23,844 bases of DNA from Oscillochloris sp. ZM17-4. GTDB lineage: Bacteria > Chloroflexota > Chloroflexia > Chloroflexales > Chloroflexaceae. The DNA lies in NCBI RefSeq assembly GCF_019599295.1, contig NZ_JAIEWN010000016.1:59839-83682 (forward strand). The letters are read 5' to 3'. Position 1 is the first letter of the stretch; every line of letters begins with the position of its first letter. The position numbers were made by a program, and so were the translations under genes. Below, in pieces: positions 5,478 to 17,803 of the stretch. The notes beneath the pieces are model-generated. The model was not told where the DNA came from. It saw only the letters and a program-made list of their open reading frames with translations, and ran no database searches.

Positions 5478-8012
5478 TCAGCCCTTCTTGATCACCTCGC
5501 GGGAGCGCCCGCCCTCGGCCGGGCCGACCACCCCCTGCTGCTCCAGCAGGTCGATCAGCTGGGCGGCCTTGCTGTAGCCGATGCGCAGCCGGCGCTGGAG
5601 CAGCGAGGCCGAGGCCCGCTGGTGCTGCTCCACCAGGGCCTTCGCCTGCGGCAGCAGCTCGTCCTGCTCGTCCACGCTGAGGAACTCCGCCGGCGGCCGG
5701 TAGGCCTCGTCGGGGGTTGGGGGCTGGGGGGTGGGGGTTGGGGTCGCGCCCGCCTCGGTCGGCCGTGGGCCAGGGAGGGCGCCGCTGAAGGGCGGGCCAT
5801 TCATCCCCAGCGAGCCGCCGGCCTTCGCCTTCACCTCCTCCTCGGTGTCCGGGGGCAGCGCCTTGCGCCAGAAGTCGACGATCTTCTCGACCTCGCGGTC
5901 GGAGACGTAGGTGCCCTGGACGCGCACCAGCTTGGCGGAGTCGGCGGCCATGTAGAGCATATCGCCGCGGCCAAGCAGCTGGTCGGCGCCGGGGCCATCG
6001 AGGATGACCCGGCTGTCGACCTGGGAGGTGACGGCGAAGGCGATCCGCGAGGGGAAGTTGGCCTTGATCAGGCCGGTGATCACATCCACCGAGGGGCGCT
6101 GGGTGGCGATGATAAGGTGGATGCCGGTGGCGCGGGCCATCTGGGCCAGGCGGCAGATGTAGGTCTCCGTCTCATCGGGGGCCATCATCATCAGGTCGGC
6201 CAGCTCGTCGATGATGATCAGGATGTAGGGCATCGGCTCCAGGTCGGCGCGCTTGCGGGCCAGCAGCTTATAGCTCTCCAGGTTGCGGCAGCCGTGGCGG
6301 GCGAAGATCTTATAGCGCCGCTCCATCTCGCGGGTGGCCCACTTCAGGGTCGGCACCACCCGCTCCAGCTCCGTCACCACTGGCGAGAGCAGGTGCGGCA
6401 CCCGGTTGTAGACGATCATCTCGACCATCTTCGGGTCGACCAGGATGAGCTTCAGGTCGTCGGGGCTATGCTTGAGCAGCAGGCCGCAGAGGAAGGCGTT
6501 GATCGCCACCGACTTGCCGGAGCCGGTCGAGCCGGCCACCAGCAGGTGCGGCATCTTAGTCATGTCGGCGATGATCGGCGTGCCGCTGACGTCCTTGCCG
6601 AGGGGCAGCTTGAGCTTGCCGCGGCTGGCCTCAAACTCCTCGCTGTCGATCACCTCGCGCATGCTGACCATGGCGATCGCCGAGTTGGGGATCTCGATGC
6701 CGACGGCGGCCTTGCCGGGGATGGGCGCCTCGATGCGGATGGAGGGCGCGGCCAGGGCCAGGGCTAGGTCGCGCTCCAGCGAGGTGATCTTGCTGACCTT
6801 GACGCCCACGGCGGGCTGCAGCTCGAACTGCGTCACCGCCGGGCCGGGGTTCACATTCACCACCTGGGCCTCGACCTTAAAGCTGGCCAGGGTCTCCTCG
6901 ATCAGGCGCGAGCGGGCGCGGATATCCTCGTCGCTGATGCCCGCCTCGGCGCTGTAGGAGTCGAGCATCTCCATCACGGGCAGCGGCCAGGCTCGGTGTA
7001 CCGCCGGCACATCGAAGCCGTCCAGCGCCTCCTGCACCGTCTCGACCACCGGCTCGGGGGTGGGGCGGGGCAGGACGCTGCGCTGGGCCGGCTCTGGGGC
7101 CGGGGCGGCGGGCGGGCCGCCCAGGGTCGGGGCTGGCGCGCCCTTGCCGGCGGCGGGCGCGGCGGGCGCGGCCGGCGGCGGCGCCGCGCCCCTGCCGGCG
7201 GCGGCGGGGTCGCCGCCGGGGCGCTGGAAGAGGCTGGCCTTTGTGGTGCGGGCGGCGATCGGAGTCTGGGTCAGGTCATCATCCGCGCCGAGGGGCGGCG
7301 GCTGGAAGGGCAGGTCGTCGTCGGCCAGCGCGGGTCGGCGGGGCGCGGCGGGGCGGCGCGGCGCGCCCCAGAGCAGCGCCCAGAAGCGGGCGGCGCGCAC
7401 GCTCATGCCGATGATCAGCTCGCGCAGGGTGATGTTAAACGTCAGCATGACCCCGGCCAGGCCGAGCACGATCACCACTAGCACCGCCGCGGGCCGGCCG
7501 ATGCTGCGGTCCAGCCCCTCGACCACCCCGGAGCCGATCAGGCCGCCGCCCTGGTCGATCCGGTCGGCCAGATTGATCTCGTGGAAGGGGAACTCCAGCA
7601 GGCCGAGGATGGCCGCCAGGACGAGCACGGTGCCCAGGGCGTTGGCCCCAGACAGCTGCGCGTCCTGCATGCGCTCCTGGATGAGGATGGCCACGCCGAG
7701 CAGGCCCAGCGTCACCGGCACCACCAGCGCCCCGCTGCCGAAGGCCCGCCGGACCACCTCCAGGTAGAGCCCTCCGACGCCGCCAGCGACCCCGGTGAAG
7801 AAGAAGACCAGCGTCACCAGGGCGACGGTGATCAGCGCGAGGGCGAACAGCTCGCGCTGGTGCTCGGGGCGCAGCGAGATCGCGAAGGCCGGCTTCTCCT
7901 TGCGCGCGCCCCGGCGCGCCGGCGCCCTGCCCTTGCCCGCCGGCCGCCGGCCGCCGCTGCCGCCCGCCTTATTCCCGCCCCGTGAGGCCATAGGGTGCCC
8001 TCTCCTGCGCAT
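5478..8012 (-). CDS. ftsK: DNA translocase FtsK: N-terminal 4-TM domain, Pro/Ala-rich linker, RecA-like motor and C-terminal gamma (winged-helix) domain
   Basis: Walker A 'GSTGSGKSVAINA', Walker B 'LIIIDELADLMM', 'IHLIIATQRPSVDVITG'. Gamma domain 'LLPQAKALVEQHQRASASLLQRRLRIGYSKAAQLIDLLEQQGVVGP'. An alternative start M lies 7 codons in, with a better-spaced 'aggag'. Confidence 0.95.
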   Translation of the reverse strand: MRRRGHPMASRGGNKAGGSGGRRPAGKGRAPARRGARKEKPAFAISLRPEHQRELFALALITVALVTLVFFFTGVAGGVGGLYLEVVRRAFGSGALVVPVTLGLLGVAILIQERMQDAQLSGANALGTVLVLAAILGLLEFPFHEINLADRIDQGGGLIGSGVVEGLDRSIGRPAAVLVVIVLGLAGVMLTFNITLRELIIGMSVRAARFWALLWGAPRRPAAPRRPALADDDLPFQPPPLGADDDLTQTPIAARTTKASLFQRPGGDPAAAGRGAAPPPAAPAAPAAGKGAPAPTLGGPPAAPAPEPAQRSVLPRPTPEPVVETVQEALDGFDVPAVHRAWPLPVMEMLDSYSAEAGISDEDIRARSRLIEETLASFKVEAQVVNVNPGPAVTQFELQPAVGVKVSKITSLERDLALALAAPSIRIEAPIPGKAAVGIEIPNSAIAMVSMREVIDSEEFEASRGKLKLPLGKDVSGTPIIADMTKMPHLLVAGSTGSGKSVAINAFLCGLLLKHSPDDLKLILVDPKMVEMIVYNRVPHLLSPVVTELERVVPTLKWATREMERRYKIFARHGCRNLESYKLLARKRADLEPMPYILIIIDELADLMMMAPDETETYICRLAQMARATGIHLIIATQRPSVDVITGLIKANFPSRIAFAVTSQVDSRVILDGPGADQLLGRGDMLYMAADSAKLVRVQGTYVSDREVEKIVDFWRKALPPDTEEEVKAKAGGSLGMNGPPFSGALPGPRPTEAGATPTPTPQPPTPDEAYRPPAEFLSVDEQDELLPQAKALVEQHQRASASLLQRRLRIGYSKAAQLIDLLEQQGVVGPAEGGRSREVIKKG

Positions 8013-8075
8013 TCTAGTGCCGTTAGCCGGCAGTATAGCACATCTGCGCGGGGGGTGTCTCCCCGCAGGGCGGCC

Positions 8076-8147
8076 GGGGGTGGCGAAGCCACCCCCGAAG
8101 GTTTTTAGTGGGATTTTGGCGGCGAAGCCGCCAAAATCCCACTAAAA
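8076..8147. repeat. Two adjacent perfect palindromes with GAA loops and a GGC-GAA-GCC centre: a 9-bp stem (8076-8096) and a 21-bp stem (8103-8147)
   Basis: 'gggggtggc gaa gccaccccc' and 'ttttagtgggattttggcggc gaa gccgccaaaatcccactaaaa' are each an exact reverse complement around a 3-nt centre. Confidence 0.9.
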
Positions 8148-8207
8148 GCAGGGTCTGGGGCTGCGCCTATGCGTATCACGTTAGGCCCCGGGCTCCCCGG
8201 AATTCCC

Positions 8208-8260
8208 TGTTGTTTTGGCCAACATGGCCAGCTTCGCTGGCCATGTTGGCCAAAACAACA
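8208..8260. repeat. 25-bp-stem perfect palindrome with a TTC centre
   Basis: 'tgttgttttggccaacatggccagc ttc gctggccatgttggccaaaacaaca'. The core 'atggccagc-ttc-gctggccat' is identical (in reverse complement) to the core of the palindrome at 22376-22420. Confidence 0.9.
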
Positions 8261-8296
8261 CCAGTTTTTAGGGCCGCAGCCCCAGGACTCTGTAGC

Positions 8297-8305
8297 TGCT
8301 ATAAT
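8297..8305 (+). promoter_or_regulatory. Extended -10 element (TGcTATAAT) for yggX. An 11-bp direct repeat 'gtatccagcag' x2 lies in the leader (8321-8346)
   Basis: 'tgctataat' sits 56 nt upstream of the ATG at 8361, with no convincing -35. A direct repeat with a 4-nt gap occurs between the -10 and the RBS. Confidence 0.45.
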
Positions 8306-8360
8306 CATAGGACAGCTATGGTATCCAGCAGCGATAGTATCCAGCAGAAGGTGAACCGCT

Positions 8361-8669
8361 ATGCCGCGTATGGTCAACTGTGTGAAGATAGGCCGCGAGC
8401 TGCCGGGGCTGGATCGCCCGCCCTTCAGCGGGCCGCTCGGCCAGCGCATCTTTGAGAGCGTCTCCCAGCAGGCCTGGGCGCTCTGGCCGGCCCAGTCGAC
8501 CCTGATCATCAACCACTACGGGCTGAGCCTGGGCGACCCGAACGCCCAGAAGATCCTGCTCCAGCAGATGGAGGAGTTCTTCTTCGGCGAGAAGGCCCGC
8601 ATGCCCGAGGGCTGGACGCCTCAGCCGGCGGCCCCGGCGGCCAAGGGCGCCGGGCCGAGGCGGAAATGA
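8361..8669 (+). CDS. yggX: Fe(2+)-trafficking / oxidative-damage-protection protein of the YggX family
   Basis: 'MPRMVNCVKIGRELPGLDRPPFSGPLGQRIFESVSQQAWALWPAQSTLIINHYGLSLGDPNAQKILLQQMEEFFFGEK' aligns along its whole length with E. coli YggX ('...[58 protein letters not shown]'). RBS 'gaaggtga'. Confidence 0.85.
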   Translation: MPRMVNCVKIGRELPGLDRPPFSGPLGQRIFESVSQQAWALWPAQSTLIINHYGLSLGDPNAQKILLQQMEEFFFGEKARMPEGWTPQPAAPAAKGAGPRRK

Positions 8670-8670
8670 T

Positions 8671-8704
8671 GGTGTAGGGATGCAGCGTGCTGCGTCCCTA
8701 CACC
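8671..8704. terminator. Bidirectional hairpin (16-bp stem with one G.U pair) shared by convergent yggX and the ATP-grasp gene. It overlaps the ATP-grasp stop codon
   Basis: 'ggtgtagggatgcagc gt gctgcgtccctacacc'. The core 'gtagggaYgcagcgtgctgcgtccctac' recurs at 19318-19353. Confidence 0.6.
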
Positions 8705-9936
8705 ATTGGGATGTTCGGCATGATCTCGAAGGTGAGGCATGCGTGGGCCGCGCGCAGGGCCGCCTCGGCCTCGGCGGGCGCGGCGGCGCGGGCGAAGATG
8801 AAGCCCAGGTAGCTGTCGCCCTCGGGCAGGGGCACCAGGGGGTAGTGCAGGGGCGCGCTGATCTCGACGCGCTCCACCCCCGGCACCGCCCGCGCATCCT
8901 CTAGGCCGCGCACCGCCCGCAGCACCCCGGCCTGCGGGATGGGGATCATCATCACCCCGCCTGCGCCGCCTGTGCGGCCCAGCGACTCCGCCGGCAGCCC
9001 GGCGGCCTGGCTCAGGATCAGCTCCTCCAGCGAGGCGTCGGTGCCGAACTGGAGCGTCTGCGAGCAGAGCCCGCCGATCGTGCGCCCGGCCAGCTCGACC
9101 ATCCACGGCCCGCGATCGTTCACCCGCAGCTCGGCGTGGAGCGGCCCGCGCTCCAGCCCCACCGCCGCCGCCGCCCGCGCCGCCACCGCCCCGATCTGGG
9201 CCTGCGCCTCGGCCGGCAGCCGCGAGGGCGTCACGTAGAGCGTCTCCTCGAAGAACGGCCCGTCCAGCGGGTCGGGCTTGTCGAAGAGGGCCAGCACCCG
9301 CAGCTCGCCGCCGTCGATCACGCCCTCCAGGGCCACCTCAAAGCCGGGGATGAAGTCCTCGGCCAGGAAGGGCTTCGGCCCCGGCGTGGGGTCGACGCGC
9401 TCAAGCAGGCGCGAGATGCGCCGCGCGGCGGCCACGAACTCGGCCGGGCCGTCGGCGCGGATCACCCCCCGGCTGCCGTTGAGCCGCAGCGGCTTCAGCA
9501 CGCAGGGGTAGCTGACCTGCGCGGCCAGCAGCCCCAGATCCTCGCCGGTGGAGCAGAGCCGGAAGGCCGGCGAGGGCACGCCGGCCGCCGCGAAGAGCCG
9601 CCGCATCAGGTGCTTGTCGCGGGCCGCCTCAGCCGCCTCGGGCCGGTTGTGGGGCAGGCCGAGGGCCGCGCTGGCCCGCGCGGCCACCATGGCCCCGCTG
9701 TCGTCCACGGCGATCACGGCGGCCAGGGGCGCCTCGGCGTGGATGGCCAGGATATCGGCCAGGGCGCGGCCCTCGTCATTGAAGTCGATGCCGACCCGGC
9801 CGCCCAGCCGGCCGGCCATGGCCGCCGGCGCATCCTCGGCCACCAGGGCGCGCACGCCCAGCCGCTCGGCCGCGCGCATGAATGCCTCCAGCCGGTAGGA
9901 CGACGGGGTGGTCAGGAGCAGGATCTGCTGGCGCAT
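8698..9936 (-). CDS. ATP-grasp domain protein, L-amino-acid-ligase / carboxylate-amine-ligase-like
   Basis: Start chosen at 'MRQQILLLTTPSS' (ATG 9936-9934); the listed longer ORF begins in repeat DNA. 'EAARDKHLMRRLFAAAGVPSP', 'YPCVLKPLRLNGSRGVIRA' and 'FLAEDFIPGFEVALEG' match the ATP-grasp fold of BacD/YwfE-type ligases. Confidence 0.7.
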   Translation of the reverse strand: MRQQILLLTTPSSYRLEAFMRAAERLGVRALVAEDAPAAMAGRLGGRVGIDFNDEGRALADILAIHAEAPLAAVIAVDDSGAMVAARASAALGLPHNRPEAAEAARDKHLMRRLFAAAGVPSPAFRLCSTGEDLGLLAAQVSYPCVLKPLRLNGSRGVIRADGPAEFVAAARRISRLLERVDPTPGPKPFLAEDFIPGFEVALEGVIDGGELRVLALFDKPDPLDGPFFEETLYVTPSRLPAEAQAQIGAVAARAAAAVGLERGPLHAELRVNDRGPWMVELAGRTIGGLCSQTLQFGTDASLEELILSQAAGLPAESLGRTGGAGGVMMIPIPQAGVLRAVRGLEDARAVPGVERVEISAPLHYPLVPLPEGDSYLGFIFARAAAPAEAEAALRAAHACLTFEIMPNIPMV

Positions 9937-10018
9937 AGTTTGGTGCATCTCATACCAACTGGAATTGAGCAATCCGCATACGCGCCGCCGCCAGAGCGCG
10001 TTGAAACGCCATGCACGG

Positions 10019-10050
10019 CAATCTGCAATCCAAAATCTGCAATCTGCAAT
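10019..10050 (+). repeat. (CAATCTG)n heptamer array, 4.5 units with one degenerate. The same heptamer recurs at 20199-20223
   Basis: 'caatctgcaatccaaaatctgcaatctgcaat' lies between two minus-strand genes. Confidence 0.9.
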
Positions 10051-10054
10051 GGTA

Positions 10055-12103
10055 TCAGTCTCGCGTGAGCAGCTTCGACGCGGACTCCAGCGCCGTGTCG
10101 GCGGCGCACACCCGGTTCCGCCCGGTCGCCTTGGCCATATAGAGCGCCCGGTCGGCCGCGCGCAGCAGCGTGTCGCCATCGCCGCCGTGGGCGGGGAAGC
10201 TCGCCACGCCGGCCGAGATCGTGCAGCGCAGCTCGTGGCCGCCGTACTCGACGCACATATCGGCGAAGGCCTGGCGCAGATCGTCGGCGCGCTCCAGTGC
10301 CATGTCGAGGGTGGCGGTGGCCATGATCACCACAAACTCCTCGCCGCCGTAGCGGCAGGCCGTGTCCATCTGGCGGGTGTGACCGTGCAGCAGCGCGCCC
10401 GTGGCCTGGAGCATGAGGTCGCCGGCCCTGTGCCCGTAGGTGTCGTTGAGCTGCTTGAAGTGGTCGATGTCCATCATCATAACACTAAGCGGGGCTTGCT
10501 CGCGCGCGGCGTGGGCCAGCCCCTGCTCGAGGATCTCTTCCATGTAGCGCCGGTTGAACAGGCCGGTGAGCACATCGTGGGTGGCCTGCTCGCGCAGCTG
10601 CGCCTGGAGCTGCTGGATCTCGGCCAGCTGCGCCTGGAGGCTCTGGTTCGCCGCGCGCAGCGCCTCGTCGGCCCGCCTGCGCTCGCTGATGTTGCGGCCG
10701 ACCCCGTTGATCGCAAGCTGGCCGGTCTCCGGGCTGATGTAGTAGTGGGTCACAATCTCCACCCAGACCGCCGAGCCATCTTTGTGCGGCTGCTCAAGCT
10801 CGTTGACGAAGGTGTGCTGGGTCGGGTCGGCCAGAAATGTGGCGATCCGCTGCTGGATCAGCCCATGGATCGCCGCCTGCATATCCGGCGGCAGCCCATG
10901 ATAGACGACTTGGCCCAGCAGCTCCTCCGGCTTGTAGCCCTGGAGCTGCTCGATCGATGGGCTGATATAGGTCAAGCGCAGGCTCTGGGTGTCGATGCTC
11001 CAGATCACATCCTGCATGTTCTCGGCCAGCAGGCGGTAGCGCCGCTCGCTCTGCCGCAGGGCCTCCTCGGCCCGCTTGTGCGCGGTGACATCGTGCAGAA
11101 TGAACAAGTGCCCCACCGGCCTGCCGCGCCGATCATTGATCGTCGAGACGACGAGGTCGTAGGTGCGCTGCCGCGCGCCGACGCCGACCGTCACCTCAGA
11201 CGTGCCCGCTGACGTGCGAGAGTGGCCCCGAAGCAGATCGGCCCAGTCGGGTGGCAGCGCCTCGACCGGCTCGCCGATAGCCTGCGCGGGCATCCCGCAG
11301 GTGACCTTCGCGGCGCTGTTCACGTCGGCGATCTGCCCCTGTGTGTCTAGCACGATCACCAGGTCCTCGATATGATCCATCACCGCACCGCGGGCGATCG
11401 GGACAATGATGAAGATCTGGCCGTGCAGCAGCGCCCAGCCGTAGATCACGCCGGTGCAGGCGAGCAGCATTGGCGTCCAGGCATAGCCGGGCAAGGGCGT
11501 GATGCGTAGCGTGGTGAGGATGTCGGCCAGGAAGGGGATGAGGATGCCCAGGATGAGCAGCAGCATTTCCCGCCGGCGCTGCGCACGGGTCACCAGGGAT
11601 ACGGCGAGGATCGCCAGCGCGCAGATGGTGAGCACGCTCCCGTACCCGTAGTAGACCCAGTACCAGGGGCCTCGGCTGAACACAACATTGCTCAGCGGGC
11701 CCTCGGCGATCAGCCGGGGGCTATGGCGAAACAGCGGGTAGAGCGGCGGGGTCAGGGTCAGCACGACGGTGACGGCAGGGATGATCAGGAGGGCTGCCAG
11801 ACGTTGGCGGGTGATCCATGCGGCGTGGCCGGTGTACTGGATCACCATGGTCAGGATGGCCGGCGCGATGAAGCCGCCGGGGATGTAGATCAGGCGGAGC
11901 AGGAGCACGCGCAGCTCAAGCGGGGCGACGACCAGGCTGAGGGCGAAGATCAGCGAGAACAGGGAAGACAGCCACATGAGCATGCGGAAGGGCCGGCACG
12001 CCGGCAGGCGGCGATAGTAGCCGGCGTAGACGGCGATGGAGGCGAGGAGCACGGCGCTGGCGAGCGGTAGCCAGACGTAGGGCGTATAGAGCATGGCCCA
12101 CAC
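10055..12103 (-). CDS. Membrane sensor diguanylate cyclase: N-terminal ~8-TM domain, tandem PAS domains, coiled coil, GGDEF domain
   Basis: GTG start with 'ggaggtg' RBS. Hydrophobic N-terminal 230 aa. PAS-like 'VIWSIDTQSLRLTYISPSIEQLQGYKPEELLG'. GGDEF core 'DVLTGLFNRRYM', 'MMDIDHFKQLNDTYGHRAGD', 'RYGGEEFVVIM', 'LYMAKATGRNRV'. Confidence 0.85.
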   Translation of the reverse strand: MWAMLYTPYVWLPLASAVLLASIAVYAGYYRRLPACRPFRMLMWLSSLFSLIFALSLVVAPLELRVLLLRLIYIPGGFIAPAILTMVIQYTGHAAWITRQRLAALLIIPAVTVVLTLTPPLYPLFRHSPRLIAEGPLSNVVFSRGPWYWVYYGYGSVLTICALAILAVSLVTRAQRRREMLLLILGILIPFLADILTTLRITPLPGYAWTPMLLACTGVIYGWALLHGQIFIIVPIARGAVMDHIEDLVIVLDTQGQIADVNSAAKVTCGMPAQAIGEPVEALPPDWADLLRGHSRTSAGTSEVTVGVGARQRTYDLVVSTINDRRGRPVGHLFILHDVTAHKRAEEALRQSERRYRLLAENMQDVIWSIDTQSLRLTYISPSIEQLQGYKPEELLGQVVYHGLPPDMQAAIHGLIQQRIATFLADPTQHTFVNELEQPHKDGSAVWVEIVTHYYISPETGQLAINGVGRNISERRRADEALRAANQSLQAQLAEIQQLQAQLREQATHDVLTGLFNRRYMEEILEQGLAHAAREQAPLSVMMMDIDHFKQLNDTYGHRAGDLMLQATGALLHGHTRQMDTACRYGGEEFVVIMATATLDMALERADDLRQAFADMCVEYGGHELRCTISAGVASFPAHGGDGDTLLRAADRALYMAKATGRNRVCAADTALESASKLLTRD

Positions 12104-12384
12104 CTCCGGCAGAGGACACTGTCATAGTGATGTCCTTAGGGCGATGGTTATTTTACTGCTGTTTTAAAAGATGAAGAGTGAGGGAAGATGGAATGAGATT
12201 ATACACCCTGTGTCAAGCGACGCATCGGGCTTTTGCAGGAAGGCGACACAAATAGCGTGCATAGCCGCAGTGGCTGGCACGAGTTTCTGAGTACGGCGAA
12301 GCCGCCTCGGTGGGTGACGAGGTTACAAGACTTATGCCAGCGCTACAGGTACTCAGGAGCGAACTGCTCCTCGGTGGGCTCCGC

Positions 12385-13749
12385 TCAGCAGTACCAGGGC
12401 TCGCTCAGGTAGGGGATGGGCGGGCGGGGCAGCAGGTGCGCCAGGCTAGGCCGCGCCCCCGCGCCGATCTGGGAGTCCACCAGATCCCACAGCTTCTCAA
12501 AGAATTGCGCCCGTGTCTCGCCGCGCGGCCCGCTGCCCTGGGCCAGCCGCAGCGCGGCCCGCTGGAGCGTGTCCATCGCCGGATCGGGGTGGCGCCAGGG
12601 GTAGACCAGCCCGGCCGGGTCGAACGGCCCGACCAGATCCCTGACCTCGTCGAGGTGGAGCAGCCAGGAGCCGGACGGGATGAGCAGGCGGATGGCGTAC
12701 TGCACCGGCGAGACGCTCTCGACCAGGCCGAGCTCAGTGATCGCGCGCAGGAAGTCGGCATAGACCTGGCGGCTCGTCCAGGGCGTGAAGGCCACAAAGG
12801 TCGCGTTCAGGCCGACCCCGGCCTCGCGCAGCAGCCCGGCGGCGCGGGCCACATCATCGCGGGTGTGGCGCTTGTCCAGCCGCTCAAGGATGCCCTCGTC
12901 CAGCGCCTCGACCGCGCTCGTCACCAGGGCGCAGCCGGTGTCGCGCAGCTCGGGCAGCAGCTCGGCGTGGCGCAGCAGGTGCTCGACCTTGATCGTCACA
13001 TCGTAGGTGATGCCGGGGTGCTCGGCGTGCAGGGCGCGCACGATCTTCATTGCGTGGCCGGGCCCGTTGAGGAAGTCCGGGTCGCCGAAGGTGATATGGG
13101 CCGCCCCGGCGGCCACCTGGCGGCGCACGTCCTCAAGCACCACATCCCTCGGCACGGTGCGGAAGCGCCCGCCGTAGACGGGGACGATCGGGCAGTGGCG
13201 GCAGGTGTGCTTACAGCCGCGGCTAGCCTCGGTGTAGCCGGCGGCCCGCCGGCCCTCGGCGGTGATCAGGGCGGCGTAGGCCAGCGGGCCGGGCAGGCCG
13301 GCGCGGTCGGGGGGGATGAACGACAGTAGGGGCGTAACAGCGCGCCTGCTCTCATCTGCTGAGGATTCATCTGCCGCTGTTGCGCCCCTACCCTTGTATA
13401 TATCCACCAGGGCGGCCTCAAACTCCCCGCCGACGCAGGCGTCGGCGCCGAGCGCGCGCAGATGATCGGCGTTGAGCGGGGCGTAGAGGCCGTAGCAGAC
13501 GATGGTGGCCTGCGGGGCGAGGGCGCGCAGCTCGGGCAGCAGCTCGGCGGCCAGGCGGGTGGCCGTGTGCATCGGCACATACAGACCGATCAGCGCCGCC
13601 CGCGCCGCCGCCGCCCGGTCGAGCGGCTGGAGCGAGGTGTCGATAGCGAGCACCTCGGCCCCGGCGCGGCGCAGCCATGCCGCCGGCGAGGCCAGCCCGA
13701 AGGGCTGGTGCCCGAGCTCGTAGGTTGAGATCAGCAGCGCGAGAGGCAT
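12385..13749 (-). CDS. B12-binding-domain radical SAM enzyme (class B)
   Basis: N-terminal Rossmann-like B12 domain 'MPLALLISTYELGHQPFGL...IVCYGLYAPLN'. Radical-SAM cluster motif 'SRGCKHTCRHCP' (CxxxCxxC). 'ITFGDPDFL'. The start codon abuts the heptamer array, with no SD. Confidence 0.8.
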   Translation of the reverse strand: MPLALLISTYELGHQPFGLASPAAWLRRAGAEVLAIDTSLQPLDRAAAARAALIGLYVPMHTATRLAAELLPELRALAPQATIVCYGLYAPLNADHLRALGADACVGGEFEAALVDIYKGRGATAADESSADESRRAVTPLLSFIPPDRAGLPGPLAYAALITAEGRRAAGYTEASRGCKHTCRHCPIVPVYGGRFRTVPRDVVLEDVRRQVAAGAAHITFGDPDFLNGPGHAMKIVRALHAEHPGITYDVTIKVEHLLRHAELLPELRDTGCALVTSAVEALDEGILERLDKRHTRDDVARAAGLLREAGVGLNATFVAFTPWTSRQVYADFLRAITELGLVESVSPVQYAIRLLIPSGSWLLHLDEVRDLVGPFDPAGLVYPWRHPDPAMDTLQRAALRLAQGSGPRGETRAQFFEKLWDLVDSQIGAGARPSLAHLLPRPPIPYLSEPWYC

Positions 13750-13751
13750 AA

Positions 13752-13905
13752 TGAATGTTGAATGTTGAATGCTGAATGTTGAATGTTGAGTGGGTGGGGG
13801 TTTCGAAAGCTGGAGCTAGTATAACACGCCGCATAGCCTACAAAGCGCTCCATCTGCCCGGCGCCCTTGGCATTCAACATTCATCATTCATCATTCATCA
13901 TTACC
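13752..13905. repeat. Inverted heptamer arrays: (TGAATGT)5 at 13752-13789 and the complementary (CATTCAN)5 at 13871-13905, separated by about 80 nt
   Basis: Read directly. The right array supplies the TAA stop (13901-13903) of the MVP-like gene. The left array abuts the ATG of the radical-SAM gene. Confidence 0.9.
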
Positions 13906-15289
13906 GCGTCTGGATGCGCAGGTCCACGTCCTCGGGGGTGAAGAAGAGGCTGGCGCTGCCGGCGCTGAGCGCGGTCAGAGCCTCCTGCTTGCGCAGAGTC
14001 TGGAAGACGGCCAGCTTCTCGGCGGGGGCCAGCTCGGCGCCGAGGGCGTCGAGGAAGGCCCGCACCCGCCCGGCCTCGGCGGCCCCGCCGATCTCGGCCT
14101 GAGCCAGCTCCACGATGCGGCGCACATCCATCAGCCGACCGCGCAACTCCTCGGCCTCGGTCTCGCCGCGGATCTGGCGCAGCCGCACCTCGTTCTCGCT
14201 CTCCTGCTGCTGGAGCCGGTTCAGCCGGTTCGTCGTCTCCTGGATGATCTCCTGCAGCACCCGCTGGGTCGCCGGGTCCTTGCAGGCGACCGCGCGCACC
14301 TCGACGGCGTGCAGCACCACCCCGCGCTCGGCGTAGAAGCCGTCGGCCCCGCCCAGCACCGCCTCGCGGATGATCGCGTTGAAGGCGGCCAGGAAGCGCT
14401 CCAGGCTCACCTGGGAGACCGACTGGATGATCTGGCTGCGCGCGTGTGAGCAGACGTCGCCGGGCGTATCGTCGGTGGTGCGCACCATGCCCTGGACATC
14501 GACGATCTGCCAGAAGAAGGTGATCCCGATCGTCAGCTCGACGTTGTCCTGGGTGCGGGCCTCAAGCTCGTACCACATAAACTTCGGGCGCTGGTCGAGG
14601 TGGGTGATCTTCAGCTCGCGGCGGTCCTTGTGCAGGCCGCTCGACCAGCGGAAGGTGACCAGCTCGTCGTAGGGGCCGAGGAAGAAGGCCCGCTCGGCGT
14701 CGGCCCCGCTGCGGATGCGGTAGGCCCCGCTGCGCTCCTTGATCACCACGGCCTCGTGGTCCTCCAGGCGCACCCGGCGGCGCACCTCGACGACCTGCTG
14801 GGTCGGCGCGGGCGCGAAGACCTGCGGCGCGATGATCAGCTCCAGCCCGCCGGCGACGGTGTCGCGCACCAGCACCGCCGTCTGCTCATCGATGTTGATC
14901 CCGTCGCGCACATCCTCCAGGATGGCCTCGGTCGGGCTGAGGACGACCCGCCCCTCGCCGCGCTCGACCCGGATCGCGCCGCTGCTCTGGTCGAGCAGGC
15001 GCAGGTACTGGCCGCGCTTGAGCGGGATGGCCTGGAGCTGCTCGTCCACCTCCTCGCCGGGGCCGAGGAAGACCAGCCTCGGGCCGACCTCGTTGCGCAC
15101 CTCGCCGCTGAGCGTGTCGCGCACGCGCAGGTAGTCGGTTGGGCCGAGGGCGATCGCCTCGCGCCGGCTGACGCGGGAGAGGGCCGGCGTGATCACCGCG
15201 CCGGGGCCGTTGGCCACCCGCCGGCGGGTCGGCGTCTCGATCAGCAGCTGCTCGTCCTCCTTGAGGAAGGCCACCCATGGGATGATCAT
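13901..15289 (-). CDS. Major vault protein (MVP) homolog: about 3-4 MVP repeats, SPFH-like shoulder domain and C-terminal coiled coil (cap-helix-like). 463 aa
   Basis: Start chosen at 'MIIPWVAF' (ATG 15289-15287, 'aggag' 7 nt upstream); the listed ORF's first 53 aa translate the palindrome and leader. Repeat region 'FLGPGEEVDEQLQAIPLKRGQYLRLL' resembles eukaryotic MVP '[30 protein letters not shown]'. Shoulder 'DNVELTIGITFFWQIVDV...TPGDVCSHARSQIIQSVSQVSLERFLAAFNAIIREAVLG' resembles 'DHARLQLQLAYNWHFEV...[42 protein letters not shown]'. 'IIQETTNRLNRLQQQESE' resembles '[24 protein letters not shown]'. Confidence 0.7.
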   Translation of the reverse strand: MIIPWVAFLKEDEQLLIETPTRRRVANGPGAVITPALSRVSRREAIALGPTDYLRVRDTLSGEVRNEVGPRLVFLGPGEEVDEQLQAIPLKRGQYLRLLDQSSGAIRVERGEGRVVLSPTEAILEDVRDGINIDEQTAVLVRDTVAGGLELIIAPQVFAPAPTQQVVEVRRRVRLEDHEAVVIKERSGAYRIRSGADAERAFFLGPYDELVTFRWSSGLHKDRRELKITHLDQRPKFMWYELEARTQDNVELTIGITFFWQIVDVQGMVRTTDDTPGDVCSHARSQIIQSVSQVSLERFLAAFNAIIREAVLGGADGFYAERGVVLHAVEVRAVACKDPATQRVLQEIIQETTNRLNRLQQQESENEVRLRQIRGETEAEELRGRLMDVRRIVELAQAEIGGAAEAGRVRAFLDALGAELAPAEKLAVFQTLRKQEALTALSAGSASLFFTPEDVDLRIQTR

Positions 15290-15312
15290 CGCGGTGCTCC
15301 TGTGTCTTGTGT

Positions 15313-15360
15313 AAGATAGTGCTATACTGACACTAATTAGTGTCAGTATAGCACTATCTT
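15313..15360. promoter_or_regulatory. 48-bp perfect, spacerless, AT-rich palindrome in the promoter/leader of the MVP-like gene. Candidate operator for a dimeric regulator
   Basis: 'aagatagtgctatactgacactaa' at 15313-15336 is the exact reverse complement of 'ttagtgtcagtatagcactatctt' at 15337-15360. It is about 67% AT in a 70%-GC genome. It lies 24 nt upstream of the MVP start and contains TATACT/AGTATA and TTGACA hexamers. Confidence 0.6.
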
Positions 15361-15416
15361 GACAAAACGCAAGCACACATCCCGCTGCTCGCCTGGGCGA
15401 GCACCGTGGCTCGCCC

Positions 15417-16005
15417 CTACTGCTGCTGCTGCATCTGCTGGGCCTCAAGCTCCGCCTCGGCGGGGGTGGGCGGGGCGATCGCCGGCAGCACGCCCTCGTC
15501 GGGGATGAAGGCCTCGGTGGGCACCACCTTCACGCCCACCTCCAGCGAGCTCTCGGCGCGCCCGCGGTAGACGCCCTTCGTCGGCGGGACGTCGGCGTAG
15601 TCGCGGCCGACGGCGACGCGGATGTGGCGGTCGCGGGCGATCAGGTTGTTGGTCGGGTCGAAGCCGACCCAGCCGAGGCCGGGCAGGAGCGCCTCAACCC
15701 AGGCGTGCGAGGCGTCGCGCTCGGAGCGGTCGTGGTCCTCGACGCGGTGGTAGAGGTAGCCGCTCACATAGCGGCAGGGGATGCCCAGCGGTCGCACCAG
15801 GGCGATCATAATATGGGCGAAGTCCTGGCAGACGCCCTTGCGTTTGGCGAGGGCCTCATCGATCGGCGAGTCGACCGTCGTCGTCTGCGGCGCGTAGGCG
15901 AAGGTGCGGTACATGCGCCCGGTGATCTCGTGCAGGAGCGAGAGCGGGTCGCCGCGGCGGCGGAGGTCGAGCTGGCTCGACAGGGCGCTCAGCAGGGGCG
16001 AGGGG
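15417..16005 (-). pseudogene. Transglutaminase-like (Cys-His-Asp) core domain, 5'-truncated gene fragment with no start codon
   Basis: 'LLHEITGRMYRTFAYAP...KRKGVCQDFAHIMIALVRPLGIPCRYVSGYLYH...DASHAWVEALLPGLGWVGFDPTN'. High GC3 on the minus strand persists only to about 16005. Further upstream the minus frame is antisense-like junk, with no ATG/GTG plus RBS. Confidence 0.7.
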
Positions 16006-16799: not shown

Positions 16800-16838
16800 A
16801 AGGTAAATCTTTTACCTTTCACCTTTTACCTTTTACCT
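16780..16838. terminator. 28-bp-stem perfect hairpin built from GGTAAAA heptamers with a 3-nt loop. Bidirectional terminator spanning the stop codons of both convergent genes
   Basis: 'aggtaaaaggtaaaaggtgaaaggtaaa tct tttacctttcaccttttaccttttacct'. The TGA at 16797-16799 and the minus-strand TGA (tca at 16819-16821) both lie inside the arms. Both proteins therefore end in ...VKGKR. Confidence 0.75.
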
Positions 16839-17730
16839 TTGCCCTCAGCACGCCGGGCGTCATCTGGATGCTGATCAGATCGCTGTTACGGATGTATGGC
16901 TGATCCAGGTCGCCTTCTTCAGTGTAATCCAACGCCTCGGCCAAGGCTAACACCTCGCTGCCAGTATGGATGCGGTAAGGAAAGCCCCAGGCCGCCGTGC
17001 CGCGCATGAAGATGAAGGCCCGCCGCGCCGGCCAGGCCTGGTCGATCGCGAAGTCATCGGCCCTCGGCGCGGGCCGGTAGCCGCCGCCCGGCCCCTGCGG
17101 CCGGCGCGGCATGCGCCCCGCCGCCAGCAGGCCGACGGCCTCGGCCAGCAGCCGCCCGCCCAGGGCCGCCGCCCGCCCCTCGACCTCCTCCCAGCCCGCG
17201 CCCGCTGCCAGATCGGCCCCGCCCTGCGCCACGATGTCGCCCGTGTCCAGCCCCGGGTCCATCAGGTGTACCGTCGCCCCGACGCGCTCCGCGCCCGCGC
17301 GCAGCGCCCAGAAGATCGGCTCGGGGCCGCGCAGATCGGGCAGCAGGGAGGGGTGGACGTTCAGGAAGCCGTGGCGGGGCAGGCCCAGCAGGGCCGGCGG
17401 GATGCGCCAGGGCCAGCACGCCACACAGGCCAGGTCGGGCCGCAGCGCGGCCAGGGCGGCCAGCGCCGCCGCGCCGGCGGGCCGGCCGAGGGCCAGGGCC
17501 GGGATCGCGTGGGCGGCCGCGATCTGGAGGATGTTCGGCGGCGCGGCCCCGGCGAGCGGCAGCAGCCCCGCTGGCGCGGGCGTCGGCGGCAGCCGGGCGA
17601 GCGGCGGCGCCCCCGGCGGCGCGGGCACGGCCACACACACCACCTCGGCCCCCGCGTCGAGCAGGGCCGCCAGCGGCGGCGCCGAGAAGCGCCCCGGCAT
17701 CCCGAAGAAGAGTACCCGTAGCGGCTGCAT
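16819..17730 (-). CDS. fmt: Methionyl-tRNA formyltransferase family protein (Fmt-like, both domains). An alternative start lies 10 codons upstream at 17760
   Basis: 'MQPLRVLFFGMPGRFSAPPLAALLDAG' is Fmt N-terminus-like. The catalytic region 'HGFLNVHPSLLPDLRGPEPIFWALRAGAERVGATVHLMDPGLDTGDIVAQ' matches the Fmt 'HxSLLPxxRG...TGVT.H.M....DTGD' motifs. The listed 541-aa ORF's N-terminal 238 aa are antisense-like junk. Confidence 0.75.
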   Translation of the reverse strand: MQPLRVLFFGMPGRFSAPPLAALLDAGAEVVCVAVPAPPGAPPLARLPPTPAPAGLLPLAGAAPPNILQIAAAHAIPALALGRPAGAAALAALAALRPDLACVACWPWRIPPALLGLPRHGFLNVHPSLLPDLRGPEPIFWALRAGAERVGATVHLMDPGLDTGDIVAQGGADLAAGAGWEEVEGRAAALGGRLLAEAVGLLAAGRMPRRPQGPGGGYRPAPRADDFAIDQAWPARRAFIFMRGTAAWGFPYRIHTGSEVLALAEALDYTEEGDLDQPYIRNSDLISIQMTPGVLRAKVKGKR

Positions 17731-17787
17731 CGCTCGGCATTGTACCATCGCCGACAGCATCAGCCCGCCCCGGTCGCCCCGCTCCCC

Positions 17788-17803
17788 TGGCACGCTTCTT
17801 GCT
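17788..17803 (+). promoter_or_regulatory. Consensus sigma-54 (-24/-12) promoter 'TGGCACG-cttc-TTGCT' 52 nt upstream of rpoN. A near-identical copy lies in inverted orientation at 17820-17835 ('TGGCCCG-cttc-TTGCT' on the minus strand), facing the fmt-like gene
   Basis: Read directly: 'cctggcacgcttcttgctcctgtggcatgatgccagcaagaagcgggccacc'. The forward copy matches every conserved position of the sigma-54 promoter consensus. The two copies form an imperfect 48-bp palindrome around the 'ggcat g atgcc' centre. Confidence 0.6.

Follow-up and report, generated by a model that had tools for sequence, protein, structure and literature searches.

The locus

The gene examined here encodes a major vault protein (MVP) homolog and is preceded by a palindromic operator. 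Both lie in a 23,844-nucleotide (nt) stretch of the genome of the green filamentous bacterium Oscillochloris sp. ZM17-4 (contig NZ_JAIEWN010000016.1, positions 59,839 to 83,682), which is called the window and whose own numbering is used throughout. A preliminary description of the window had reported a gene for an MVP homolog behind a palindrome of 48 base pairs (bp). Both are confirmed at this locus, and the gene is located on the minus strand. Its product, previously given as 463 amino acids (aa), has 462 aa (52 kDa). The same protein is recorded without any difference as WP_220595759.1, locus tag K2Z83_13755 of Oscillochloris sp. ZM17-4, and is annotated there as 'hypothetical protein' or 'SPFH domain-containing protein'. 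The gene and its ribosome-binding site are positioned as follows.

13901-15289, minus strand: coding sequence of the MVP-family protein, 462 aa, with the ATG at 15289 and the stop codon at 13901-13903
15297-15301, minus strand: Shine-Dalgarno sequence AGGAG, placed by direct reading of the sequence 7 nt upstream of the start codon

The list of open reading frames (ORFs) contains a longer frame with a TTG start (13901-15448, TTG at 15448). This TTG is unlikely to be the true start, since in the alignment the homologs set in with the M-x-IPW encoded from the ATG at 15289. In the aligned upstream regions of the orthologs, AGGAG or GGAG is found at the place matching the Shine-Dalgarno sequence. 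A gene for a transglutaminase-like protein lies upstream and ends at 15417, 57 nt from the palindrome. Downstream, on the same strand, Pfam scans identify genes for a B12-binding radical SAM protein, a PAS-GGDEF protein with a seven-transmembrane (7TM) region and an ATP-grasp ligase, as had been described.

Architecture of the protein and relation to MVP

The protein is divided into four regions, which follow one another from the N- to the C-terminus, and contains one strongly conserved loop.

14594-15286, minus strand: five all-beta MVP-type repeats of approximately 43 aa each, the last one longer (residues 2-232)
14612-14647, minus strand: loop W-S-x-G-[IL]-H-K-D-x-R-x-L, among the most conserved loops of the family (residues 215-226)
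14276-14593, minus strand: SPFH-type 'shoulder' domain (residues 233-338)
14045-14275, minus strand: one long helix, assigned by DSSP on the model, that corresponds to the MVP cap-helix over its first half (residues 339-415)
13904-14044, minus strand: two short helices in a low-confidence part of the model and a conserved C-terminal tail, F-T-P-x-D-V-D-L-x-I-x-T-R (residues 416-462)

The AlphaFold2 model of the monomer has a mean predicted local distance difference test score (pLDDT) of 85 and a predicted template-modelling score (pTM) of 0.59. It comprises the repeats (5-232), the alpha/beta shoulder (236-336) and a helix of 77 residues (339-415), while the pLDDT of the C-terminal segment 416-462 is below 60. 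Within the tail of this segment, T451 and P452 are invariant in the family alignment, and F450, D454, V455, L457 and I459 are conserved to at least 90%. About three to four repeats had originally been proposed. The model contains five, four of which are detectable by comparing the family profile with itself: R2 matches R3 and R4 with probabilities of 96-98%, and R3, R4 and R5 match more weakly yet in register. R1 is a repeat by structure only.

A single-sequence phmmer search against the PDB returned no match to MVP. When a profile of 66 family members was compared with the PDB, MVP was the top match with an E-value of 1e-16, followed by the next SPFH match at 0.036. Profile positions 61-426 align collinearly with residues 353-748 of human MVP, running through repeats R7-R9 and the shoulder and covering the cap-helix over its first half. 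The shoulder pairs with MVP 520-646 and the cap-helix region with MVP residues of approximately 650-748. The three blocks of similarity on which the homology had first been proposed are reproduced in this alignment. DNVEL..FFWQI pairs with DHARLQLQLAYNWHF, GDVCSHARS... with GDACKAIAS..., and ETTNRLNRLQ of the cap-helix region is likewise paired with human MVP.

The predicted fold leads to the same assignment. In a Foldseek search of the PDB with the monomer model, which contains MVP repeat domains, twelve MVP entries rank first (E-values of 1e-24 to 1e-18, template-modelling score up to 0.59), followed by HflK/C, prohibitin, stomatin, erlin and flotillin at approximately 1e-8. The structure prediction suggested in the preliminary description thus bears out the proposed homology. 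The Pfam comparison suggested alongside it does so in part. With the single sequence, MVP_shoulder (PF11978) reaches 28.3 bits against a cut-off of 25 and Band_7 (PF01145) reaches 31.8 bits against 23.6, while Vault_3 stays at 24.5 bits, below its cut-off of 28.8. Among the 66 family members, 65 match MVP_shoulder, 49 match Band_7 and 45 match Vault_3. The protein has no match in NCBIfam, in the PADLOC defence models or, by tblastn, in 50,697 phage records.

Judged by profile and predicted fold, the protein is therefore a genuine, shortened homolog of MVP with repeats, shoulder and cap-helix. Eukaryotic MVP (PDB 4V60, 7PKZ, 9BW5) has the same order of domains, with beta-repeats, an SPFH-like shoulder and a long cap-helix. 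It is the best match in profile and fold, and neither protein has a membrane anchor. The differences lie mainly in size. Eukaryotic MVP has approximately 850-900 aa, nine repeats of approximately 55 aa and a cap-helix of approximately 155 residues, compared with 462 aa, five repeats of approximately 43 aa and 77 helical residues in the bacterial protein, which thus falls short of the nine repeats. The sequence identity is approximately 20%, and the C-terminus differs. Eukaryotic vaults also have PARP4, TEP1 and vault RNA as partners. None of these was found near the bacterial gene: Pfam scans of the ten large ORFs around it revealed no PARP or TEP1 domain, and an Rfam scan of the whole window gave no match and thus no vault RNA.

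Membrane-bound SPFH proteins (HflK/C, stomatin, prohibitin, flotillin, erlin, QmcA) share the Band_7 domain with the protein of ZM17-4. However, they carry N-terminal membrane anchors and no MVP repeats, their E-values in the fold search trail those of MVP by more than ten orders of magnitude, and they have partners of the NfeD/FtsH type, none of which was found in the window or in the conserved neighbourhoods of the bacterial MVP-like genes. No hydrophobic segment is present in the protein (maximal Kyte-Doolittle mean over 19 residues 1.2, isoelectric point 5.4), and its N-terminus is a beta repeat and not a transmembrane or hairpin anchor. Accordingly, the protein is predicted from its sequence to be soluble, unlike classical SPFH proteins.

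In human MVP, a basic pocket formed by the 'keyhole loop' at the shoulder interface accommodates NAD+, ADP and ADP-ribose; it involves R504, K506, R507, P508, H509 and R511 (PMC12280208). In the profile alignment, the conserved loop of residues 215-226 falls on MVP 500-520, and G503, K506 and H509 of human MVP are placed on G218, K221 and R224. W215, G218, K221 and L226 are invariant among the 66 sequences, H220, D222 and R224 are conserved to at least 88%, and R224 is kept in 59 of them. The correspondence of the two loops is only suggestive.

The bacterial family and its repeat series

When 1.84 billion cluster representatives were searched exhaustively with a profile, the matches comprised 288 clusters with E-values below 1e-30 and 1,247 with E-values below 1e-3. 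Members are approximately 460 to 1,000 aa long. Within the Chloroflexota, they are found in Oscillochloris, Herpetosiphon, Anaerolineae, Thermoflexales and Ardenticatenales. Further carriers include filamentous cyanobacteria, Riflebacteria, Elusimicrobia and Cloacimonadota. Longer members carry insertions of 43, 85, 126, 170 or 252 residues in the repeat region, after residues 75-133. These sizes are whole multiples of a repeat of approximately 42.5 aa, and the repeat number in the family ranges from about 5 to 11 or more. Since repeats are inserted as whole units, the wall height of the presumed assembly would vary across the family.

The protein itself is not a new discovery. It adds to a bacterial family of MVP-like proteins noticed earlier in silico. 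Its ortholog from Herpetosiphon aurantiacus, UniProt A9AUD4 (462 aa, 58% identity, same architecture), was named in 2013 among putative bacterial MVP homologs, for which folding and docking in the manner of MVP were predicted (Daly et al. 2013, PMC3762200). That study describes neither a repeat-number series nor the size of the family or its regulation. A preprint from 2019 deals with full-length bacterial MVPs. More recently, MVPs with five repeats were reported for Asgard archaea and modelled as a closed cup (Nat Microbiol 2026, PMC12962969). By their description these proteins are likewise shortened and consist of five repeats, shoulder and cap-helix; they are archaeal, and the likeness to the protein of ZM17-4 is drawn from that description only. 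No experimental study of any prokaryotic MVP was found in the literature searched, nor did a functionally characterised bacterial vault-like particle turn up there, in line with the preliminary description. The five-repeat architecture, the repeat-number series and, chiefly, the conserved double operator of the NrtR type presented below are additions for which no earlier description was found.

The protein might also be a scaffold of the SPFH clan without a closed shell, which forms open arcs, filaments or a peripheral membrane ring and resembles MVP by shared domain ancestry. This is conceivable, and the cap-helix of half the MVP length, the low-confidence C-terminus, the pTM of only 0.59 and the missing vault partners and vault RNA in the Pfam and Rfam scans of the window are in its favour. 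We nevertheless consider it doubtful. The solved SPFH-clan assemblies met in the fold searches (MVP, HflK/C, prohibitin, stomatin, erlin, flotillin and QmcA) are all closed, the protein has no membrane anchor, repeats are gained and lost in whole units as for a wall of adjustable height, and the five-repeat MVP of Asgard archaea has been modelled as a closed cup.

Operator and promoter

The region between the transglutaminase-like gene and the start codon contains the palindrome and, overlapping with it, the elements of a predicted sigma-70-type promoter.

15313-15360, palindromic, no strand: perfect 48-bp palindrome without spacer, consisting of two NrtR-type boxes and symmetric flanks, 23 nt upstream of the ATG
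15338-15356, minus strand: box 1, TAGTGCTATACTGACACTA (TAGTG-N9-CACTA), which contains the extended -10 element
15317-15335, minus strand: box 2, TAGTGTCAGTATAGCACTA, 21 bp from box 1 centre to centre, covering the predicted transcription start
15345-15353, minus strand: predicted extended -10 element, TGcTATACT, read from the sequence
15367-15372, minus strand: predicted -35 element, TTGCGT, 16 nt upstream of the -10 element

A perfect palindrome of 24 + 24 bp would be expected by chance approximately 1e-10 times in 24 kb. TAGTG-N9-CACTA has only these two matches in the window, compared with 0.12 expected. The spacing of 21 bp corresponds to two helical turns, so that both boxes face the same side of the DNA. 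Both contain a GT-N7-AC core; box 2 has the full half-site TAGTGT, and the left half-site of box 1 reads TAGTGC. The predicted promoter is not reported by a strict consensus scan because its -35 element is weak.

Including the window, box 1 is present in nine genomes. The eight further ones, in which it lies upstream of orthologs with 65-95% protein identity, are represented by L001, L002, L003, L005, L006, L073, L196-198 and L199-201. The upstream regions of all of them can be aligned except for L073 and, poorly, L006, which have a single box only. In the remaining six, a second box, (T/A)AGTG-N9-CACTA, follows 21-25 bp downstream of the first. An extended -10 element lies inside box 1 of the aligned orthologs at the matching position (TGTTATACT, TGTTATAAT or TGTTATTAT). 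At the -35 position, six of the aligned upstream regions share the block CTTGC[A/G]T, L005 has TTGACA instead, and the -35/-10 spacer of the orthologs measures 16-17 nt. When a weight matrix of the box was run over approximately 1 Mb of family loci, the seven best positions (17.6-29.1 bits), which come from the window, L001, L003, L005, L006 and L073, were all located upstream of the MVP-like gene; the box of L002 scored 13.3 bits.

The closest relative, Chloroflexales bacterium ZM16-3 (L001, 95% identity), has a 44-bp perfect version of the palindrome. In the orthologs, the central bases of one box cannot pair with those of the other, and each box retains its own dyad. Thus, the 24-bp stem is confined to ZM17-4 and this closest relative, and conservation applies to the half-sites, which favours binding of a protein over an RNA hairpin. 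A role of the palindrome as a nucleic-acid structure, be it a hairpin in the 5' untranslated region, a terminator for the transglutaminase-like gene or a cruciform, would have in its favour that 24 perfect base pairs make a very stable hairpin if transcribed and that the upstream gene ends only 57 nt away. We regard it as highly improbable. Besides the missing conservation of the long hairpin, no run of T follows the palindrome, and the predicted -10 element lies in the first arm, so that only half of the palindrome would be transcribed. The hairpin and terminator readings were rejected on the ground that conservation concerns the half-sites and not the long stem.

As far as can be read from the aligned sequences, the palindrome is a real, conserved operator that overlaps a predicted promoter, and this layout is compatible with repression. 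The palindromic operator claimed in the preliminary description is therefore present as a perfect palindrome with a box layout conserved in the orthologs.

Association of the double box with NrtR

Sites of NrtR, the Nudix-related regulator, have been described as 21-bp palindromes with a GT-N7-AC core that lie in promoters; tandem sites are functional, autoregulation occurs, and NrtR is released from DNA by ADP-ribose (Rodionov 2008, PMC2330246). The release by ADP-ribose was confirmed for mycobacterial NrtR (PMC6800001). An NrtR regulon was also described for the Chloroflexi, namely for Roseiflexus, and two genes of NrtR regulons, nrtX-nrtY, remained unexplained (PMC2330246). The operator of ZM17-4 has the same type of 21-bp palindrome, the same core, a tandem arrangement and the same position in the promoter. 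It differs in that its boxes merge into a single perfect palindrome of 48 bp and in that a structural protein of the vault family takes the place of the enzymes of NAD biosynthesis and salvage that are the known targets.

Public metagenome contigs were scanned for the double box, which yielded at least 120 loci. The dominant class consists of TAGTGT-N7-ACACTA, a short AT-rich linker and a second TAGTGT-N7-ACACTA. Among 58 loci with one such double site, 24 encode NrtR (Nudix and NrtR_WHD domains, 84-100 bits), 26 have a gene for a soluble SPFH/Band_7 protein of approximately 320 aa immediately behind the site, and 13 have both. The same metagenomic box is also directly followed by nrtR itself, pnuC, pncB or nadC, a gene set that is canonical for NrtR regulons. 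In front of nrtR and the NAD genes, this architecture with the same half-sites and a spacing of 21-23 bp is found in many unrelated metagenomic lineages. Because the double box precedes nrtR, pnuC, pncB and nadC, we infer from these sequences that the palindrome of ZM17-4 is a candidate operator of the NrtR type.

The genes behind the metagenomic box form a widespread, conserved cassette in two orders.

L077:7220-9820 and L087, L143, L146, L161, L167, L170, L192: box-SPFH-X-NrtR
L088, L118, L122, L130, L142: box-NrtR-SPFH-X

In one locus, L192, a NAMPT gene lies behind the cassette. Protein X is conserved, has approximately 306 aa, shows no Pfam match and a faint similarity to NAD kinase, and is unrelated to the NrtR-linked SPFH protein. 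The latter and the MVP-like family are not close relatives (hhalign probability 11%). The SPFH and X genes may correspond to nrtX-nrtY, which Rodionov 2008 left unexplained. In the literature searched, no paper mentioning both NrtR and SPFH was found. A database search with a metagenomic NrtR returned close relatives only, with a member of the Gemmatimonadales as the sole named organism and no entry from the Chloroflexota.

An alternative to this assignment keeps the vault-family protein but has the palindrome occupied by some regulator that is not an ADP-ribose-sensing NrtR. Such a binder could be an unrelated dimeric helix-turn-helix repressor that shares the TAGTG/CACTA half-sites by coincidence, or a paralog of NrtR with another ligand. 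This possibility gains from the fact that tblastn detects no nrtR in the 24 kb or in any MVP-like locus, and from the strong differences of NrtR motifs between lineages and the sensing of sugars by some family members. In addition, part of the conservation of box 1 stems from the promoter, because the -10 element constrains its central N7. We still hold it to be rather unlikely, as the same two-box layout precedes nrtR, pnuC, pncB and nadC in many unrelated metagenomic lineages, and TAGTG and CACTA half-sites are conserved in both boxes even though a -10 element is present in only one of them.

A side observation concerns a metagenomic orthologous locus with a perfect single box upstream (L073, 69% identity). 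A few genes downstream of its MVP-like gene and on the same strand, a stand-alone Nudix hydrolase (7944-8411) and a nucleoside phosphorylase of the PNP_UDP_1 family (9214-9972) are encoded. This single case fits a nucleotide or ADP-ribose theme and is not evidence for it.

Genomic neighbourhood

From the neighbouring radical SAM, PAS-GGDEF and ATP-grasp genes, an expression of the MVP-like gene linked to a second messenger had been proposed, and a survey for a conserved radical SAM partner had been suggested. This survey was run across the family loci, and the partner is not conserved. In L001, nucleotide homology to the window is restricted to positions 13902-15374, i.e. to the gene and the palindrome, and breaks off 14 nt beyond the latter. 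Gene and operator thus behave like a single unit that was subject to rearrangement or relocation. The place of the radical SAM gene is taken in this genome by an oppositely oriented protoglobin gene, and a gene for a tyrosine recombinase (integrase) lies upstream of the MVP-like gene (L001:6497-7435). A relative with 81% identity retains the radical SAM and ATP-grasp genes behind its ortholog, while the neighbours are unrelated in a relative with 72% identity and in all other lineages. Clustering of ORFs over 72 genome loci revealed no partner that is conserved across lineages. The only clusters spanning many loci (14-15) reflect housekeeping synteny in Riflebacteria; their genes, read from the sequence without a family scan, resemble RNase J, RluA, alanine racemase and glucose-6-phosphate dehydrogenase.

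A functional unit of the MVP-like gene with the three downstream genes, with an expression tied to cyclic di-GMP (c-di-GMP), is thus very hard to maintain. The genes share a strand, and the radical SAM and ATP-grasp genes are also found behind the ortholog of the 81% relative. Against this stand the opposite-strand protoglobin gene and the homology block ending at the palindrome in the 95% relative, the unrelated neighbours in the 72% relative and other lineages, the structured spacer of 150 nt in the window or GC hairpin in L196 that separates the genes, and the lack of a c-di-GMP riboswitch in the Rfam scan of the window. The operon reading was rejected, as no partner is conserved across lineages in the 72 loci. 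Since the neighbours are not conserved and a structured spacer or hairpin follows it, we conclude that the MVP-like gene is a stand-alone, probably monocistronic unit. It has its own predicted promoter, as the preliminary description had stated, and the inference of c-di-GMP control is unsupported. The structural interpretation given there was largely right, and the regulatory inference drawn from the neighbouring genes was wrong.

The spacer of approximately 150 nt that runs from the MVP-like stop codon to the radical SAM start codon (ATG) is occupied exactly by an element with heptamer arrays at 13753-13792 and 13871-13902, in which five copies of GAATGTT and an inverted copy of four to five units surround a core of 85 nt. 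Folded as RNA, it reaches -58 kcal/mol (z = -4.2). The 81% relative lacks the element and has a plain GC hairpin in its place, and nothing in L001, the 95% relative, matches this part of the window. A role as terminator or insulator is conceivable, as is a small inserted element.

In the 81% relative, the genes for the B12-binding radical SAM protein and the ATP-grasp protein, which resembles L-amino-acid ligases, are adjacent (L196:6831-10786). In the window (8701-13749), the 7TM-PAS-GGDEF gene is inserted between them. A formyltransferase gene is located near these genes both in the window (16822-17800) and in the 81% relative. The radical SAM and ATP-grasp genes may belong to a small biosynthetic or peptide-modifying pathway of their own, separate from the MVP-like gene.

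Proposed regulation and assembly

Vaults, which enclose PARP4, are among the largest eukaryotic ribonucleoprotein particles, and their function has been an open question for some forty years. Recent structures tie them to NAD+ through the NAD+/ADP-ribose pocket of the MVP shoulder, PARP4 inside the cage and the TIR-like NADase domain carried by TEP1. On this background, the protein of ZM17-4 is read as a soluble mini-vault subunit of the MVP family with five repeats, encoded by a monocistronic gene that is repressed by NrtR and induced by ADP-ribose. We assign this joint reading a probability of roughly 55%; all of its regulatory and assembly claims are computational.

The proposed course would be as follows. 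The predicted sigma-70-type promoter lies within a tandem pair of NrtR-type operators of 21 bp each, and this pair makes up the 48-bp palindrome. Two dimers of NrtR, one on box 1 at the -10 element and one on box 2 at the transcription start, would repress the mini-MVP gene. ADP-ribose, a product of NAD+ cleavage and known effector of NrtR, would release the dimers, so that mini-MVP would be produced upon NAD+ breakdown or accumulation of ADP-ribose. By analogy with MVP and the structurally solved SPFH-clan proteins, the subunits would most likely line up laterally and close into a ring or cup, a half-shell or 'mini-vault' that is much shorter and narrower than the eukaryotic 39-mer. The analysis shows the homology, the predicted fold, the conservation of the operator and its occurrence with nrtR and NAD genes elsewhere; we infer the binding of NrtR in ZM17-4, the induction by ADP-ribose, the assembly of a cage and any nucleotide binding by the protein.

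Several observations weigh against this reading. The structure prediction covers the monomer only. The correspondence to the keyhole loop is only suggestive because it derives from a profile alignment of a loop, and the single sequence stays below the Vault_3 cut-off. By tblastn, neither NrtR nor the NrtR-linked SPFH protein nor protein X is encoded in the 24-kb window or in the flanks of the MVP-like loci. The box is restricted to the Chloroflexales/Ardenticatenales branch of the family; the matrix scan of the family loci found none upstream of the genes of Herpetosiphon, cyanobacteria and Riflebacteria. Finally, members of the NrtR family can respond to other effectors, for example the arabinose-sensing AraR of Bacteroides.

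A further-reaching version holds that the link of the vault cage to NAD+ and ADP-ribose is ancestral. Mini-MVP would then be a soluble, ADP-ribose-induced cage. Its conserved shoulder loop would bind NAD-derived nucleotides like the keyhole pocket of human MVP, and the cage would buffer or compartmentalise NAD+/ADP-ribose or the enzymes that act on them. Soluble SPFH-clan proteins would recur in NrtR regulons, as in the metagenomic cassette with protein X and NrtR. This version, under which bacterial genetics would gain a direct handle on vault function, is speculative, and we consider it improbable as a whole.

If the regulation by NrtR is true, an ADP-ribose-sensing repressor on a bacterial MVP gene would be independent, regulatory evidence that the link to NAD+ is old and functional. 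The old question of the purpose of vault-type cages would then be open to a small number of feasible experiments in bacteria. If the link to NrtR fails, what remains is a well-documented bacterial MVP homolog, noted earlier, with a conserved site for an unknown repressor. The modular wall with 5 to more than 11 repeats is of interest for the engineering of protein containers of tunable size.

Other palindromes and repeats

The genes of Herpetosiphon differ from the ZM17-4 gene in that they have no NrtR-type boxes and carry a different 18-bp palindrome, TATGCTAG-CC-CTAGCATA, approximately 15-30 nt upstream of the MVP-like gene (L019, L021, L023 and L024), which suggests a lineage-specific regulatory rewiring of this gene. 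In Riflebacteria, a conserved palindrome of the GT-N7-AC type, TTTGTGTCATTCTGACACTTT, is located approximately 1.6-1.8 kb downstream of the MVP-like gene beside other genes (L032:6906, L034:11208, L035:11049, L060:9976). It may be an NrtR-like site of these bacteria. Tandem arrays of 5 to more than 10 TAGTG...CACTA units with a period of 21-23 bp were also encountered in the pattern scan for the double box (L098:2-167, L163:536-637, L189:8712-8929, L110:8141-8272 and others), and these are possibly iterons or another class of repeats.

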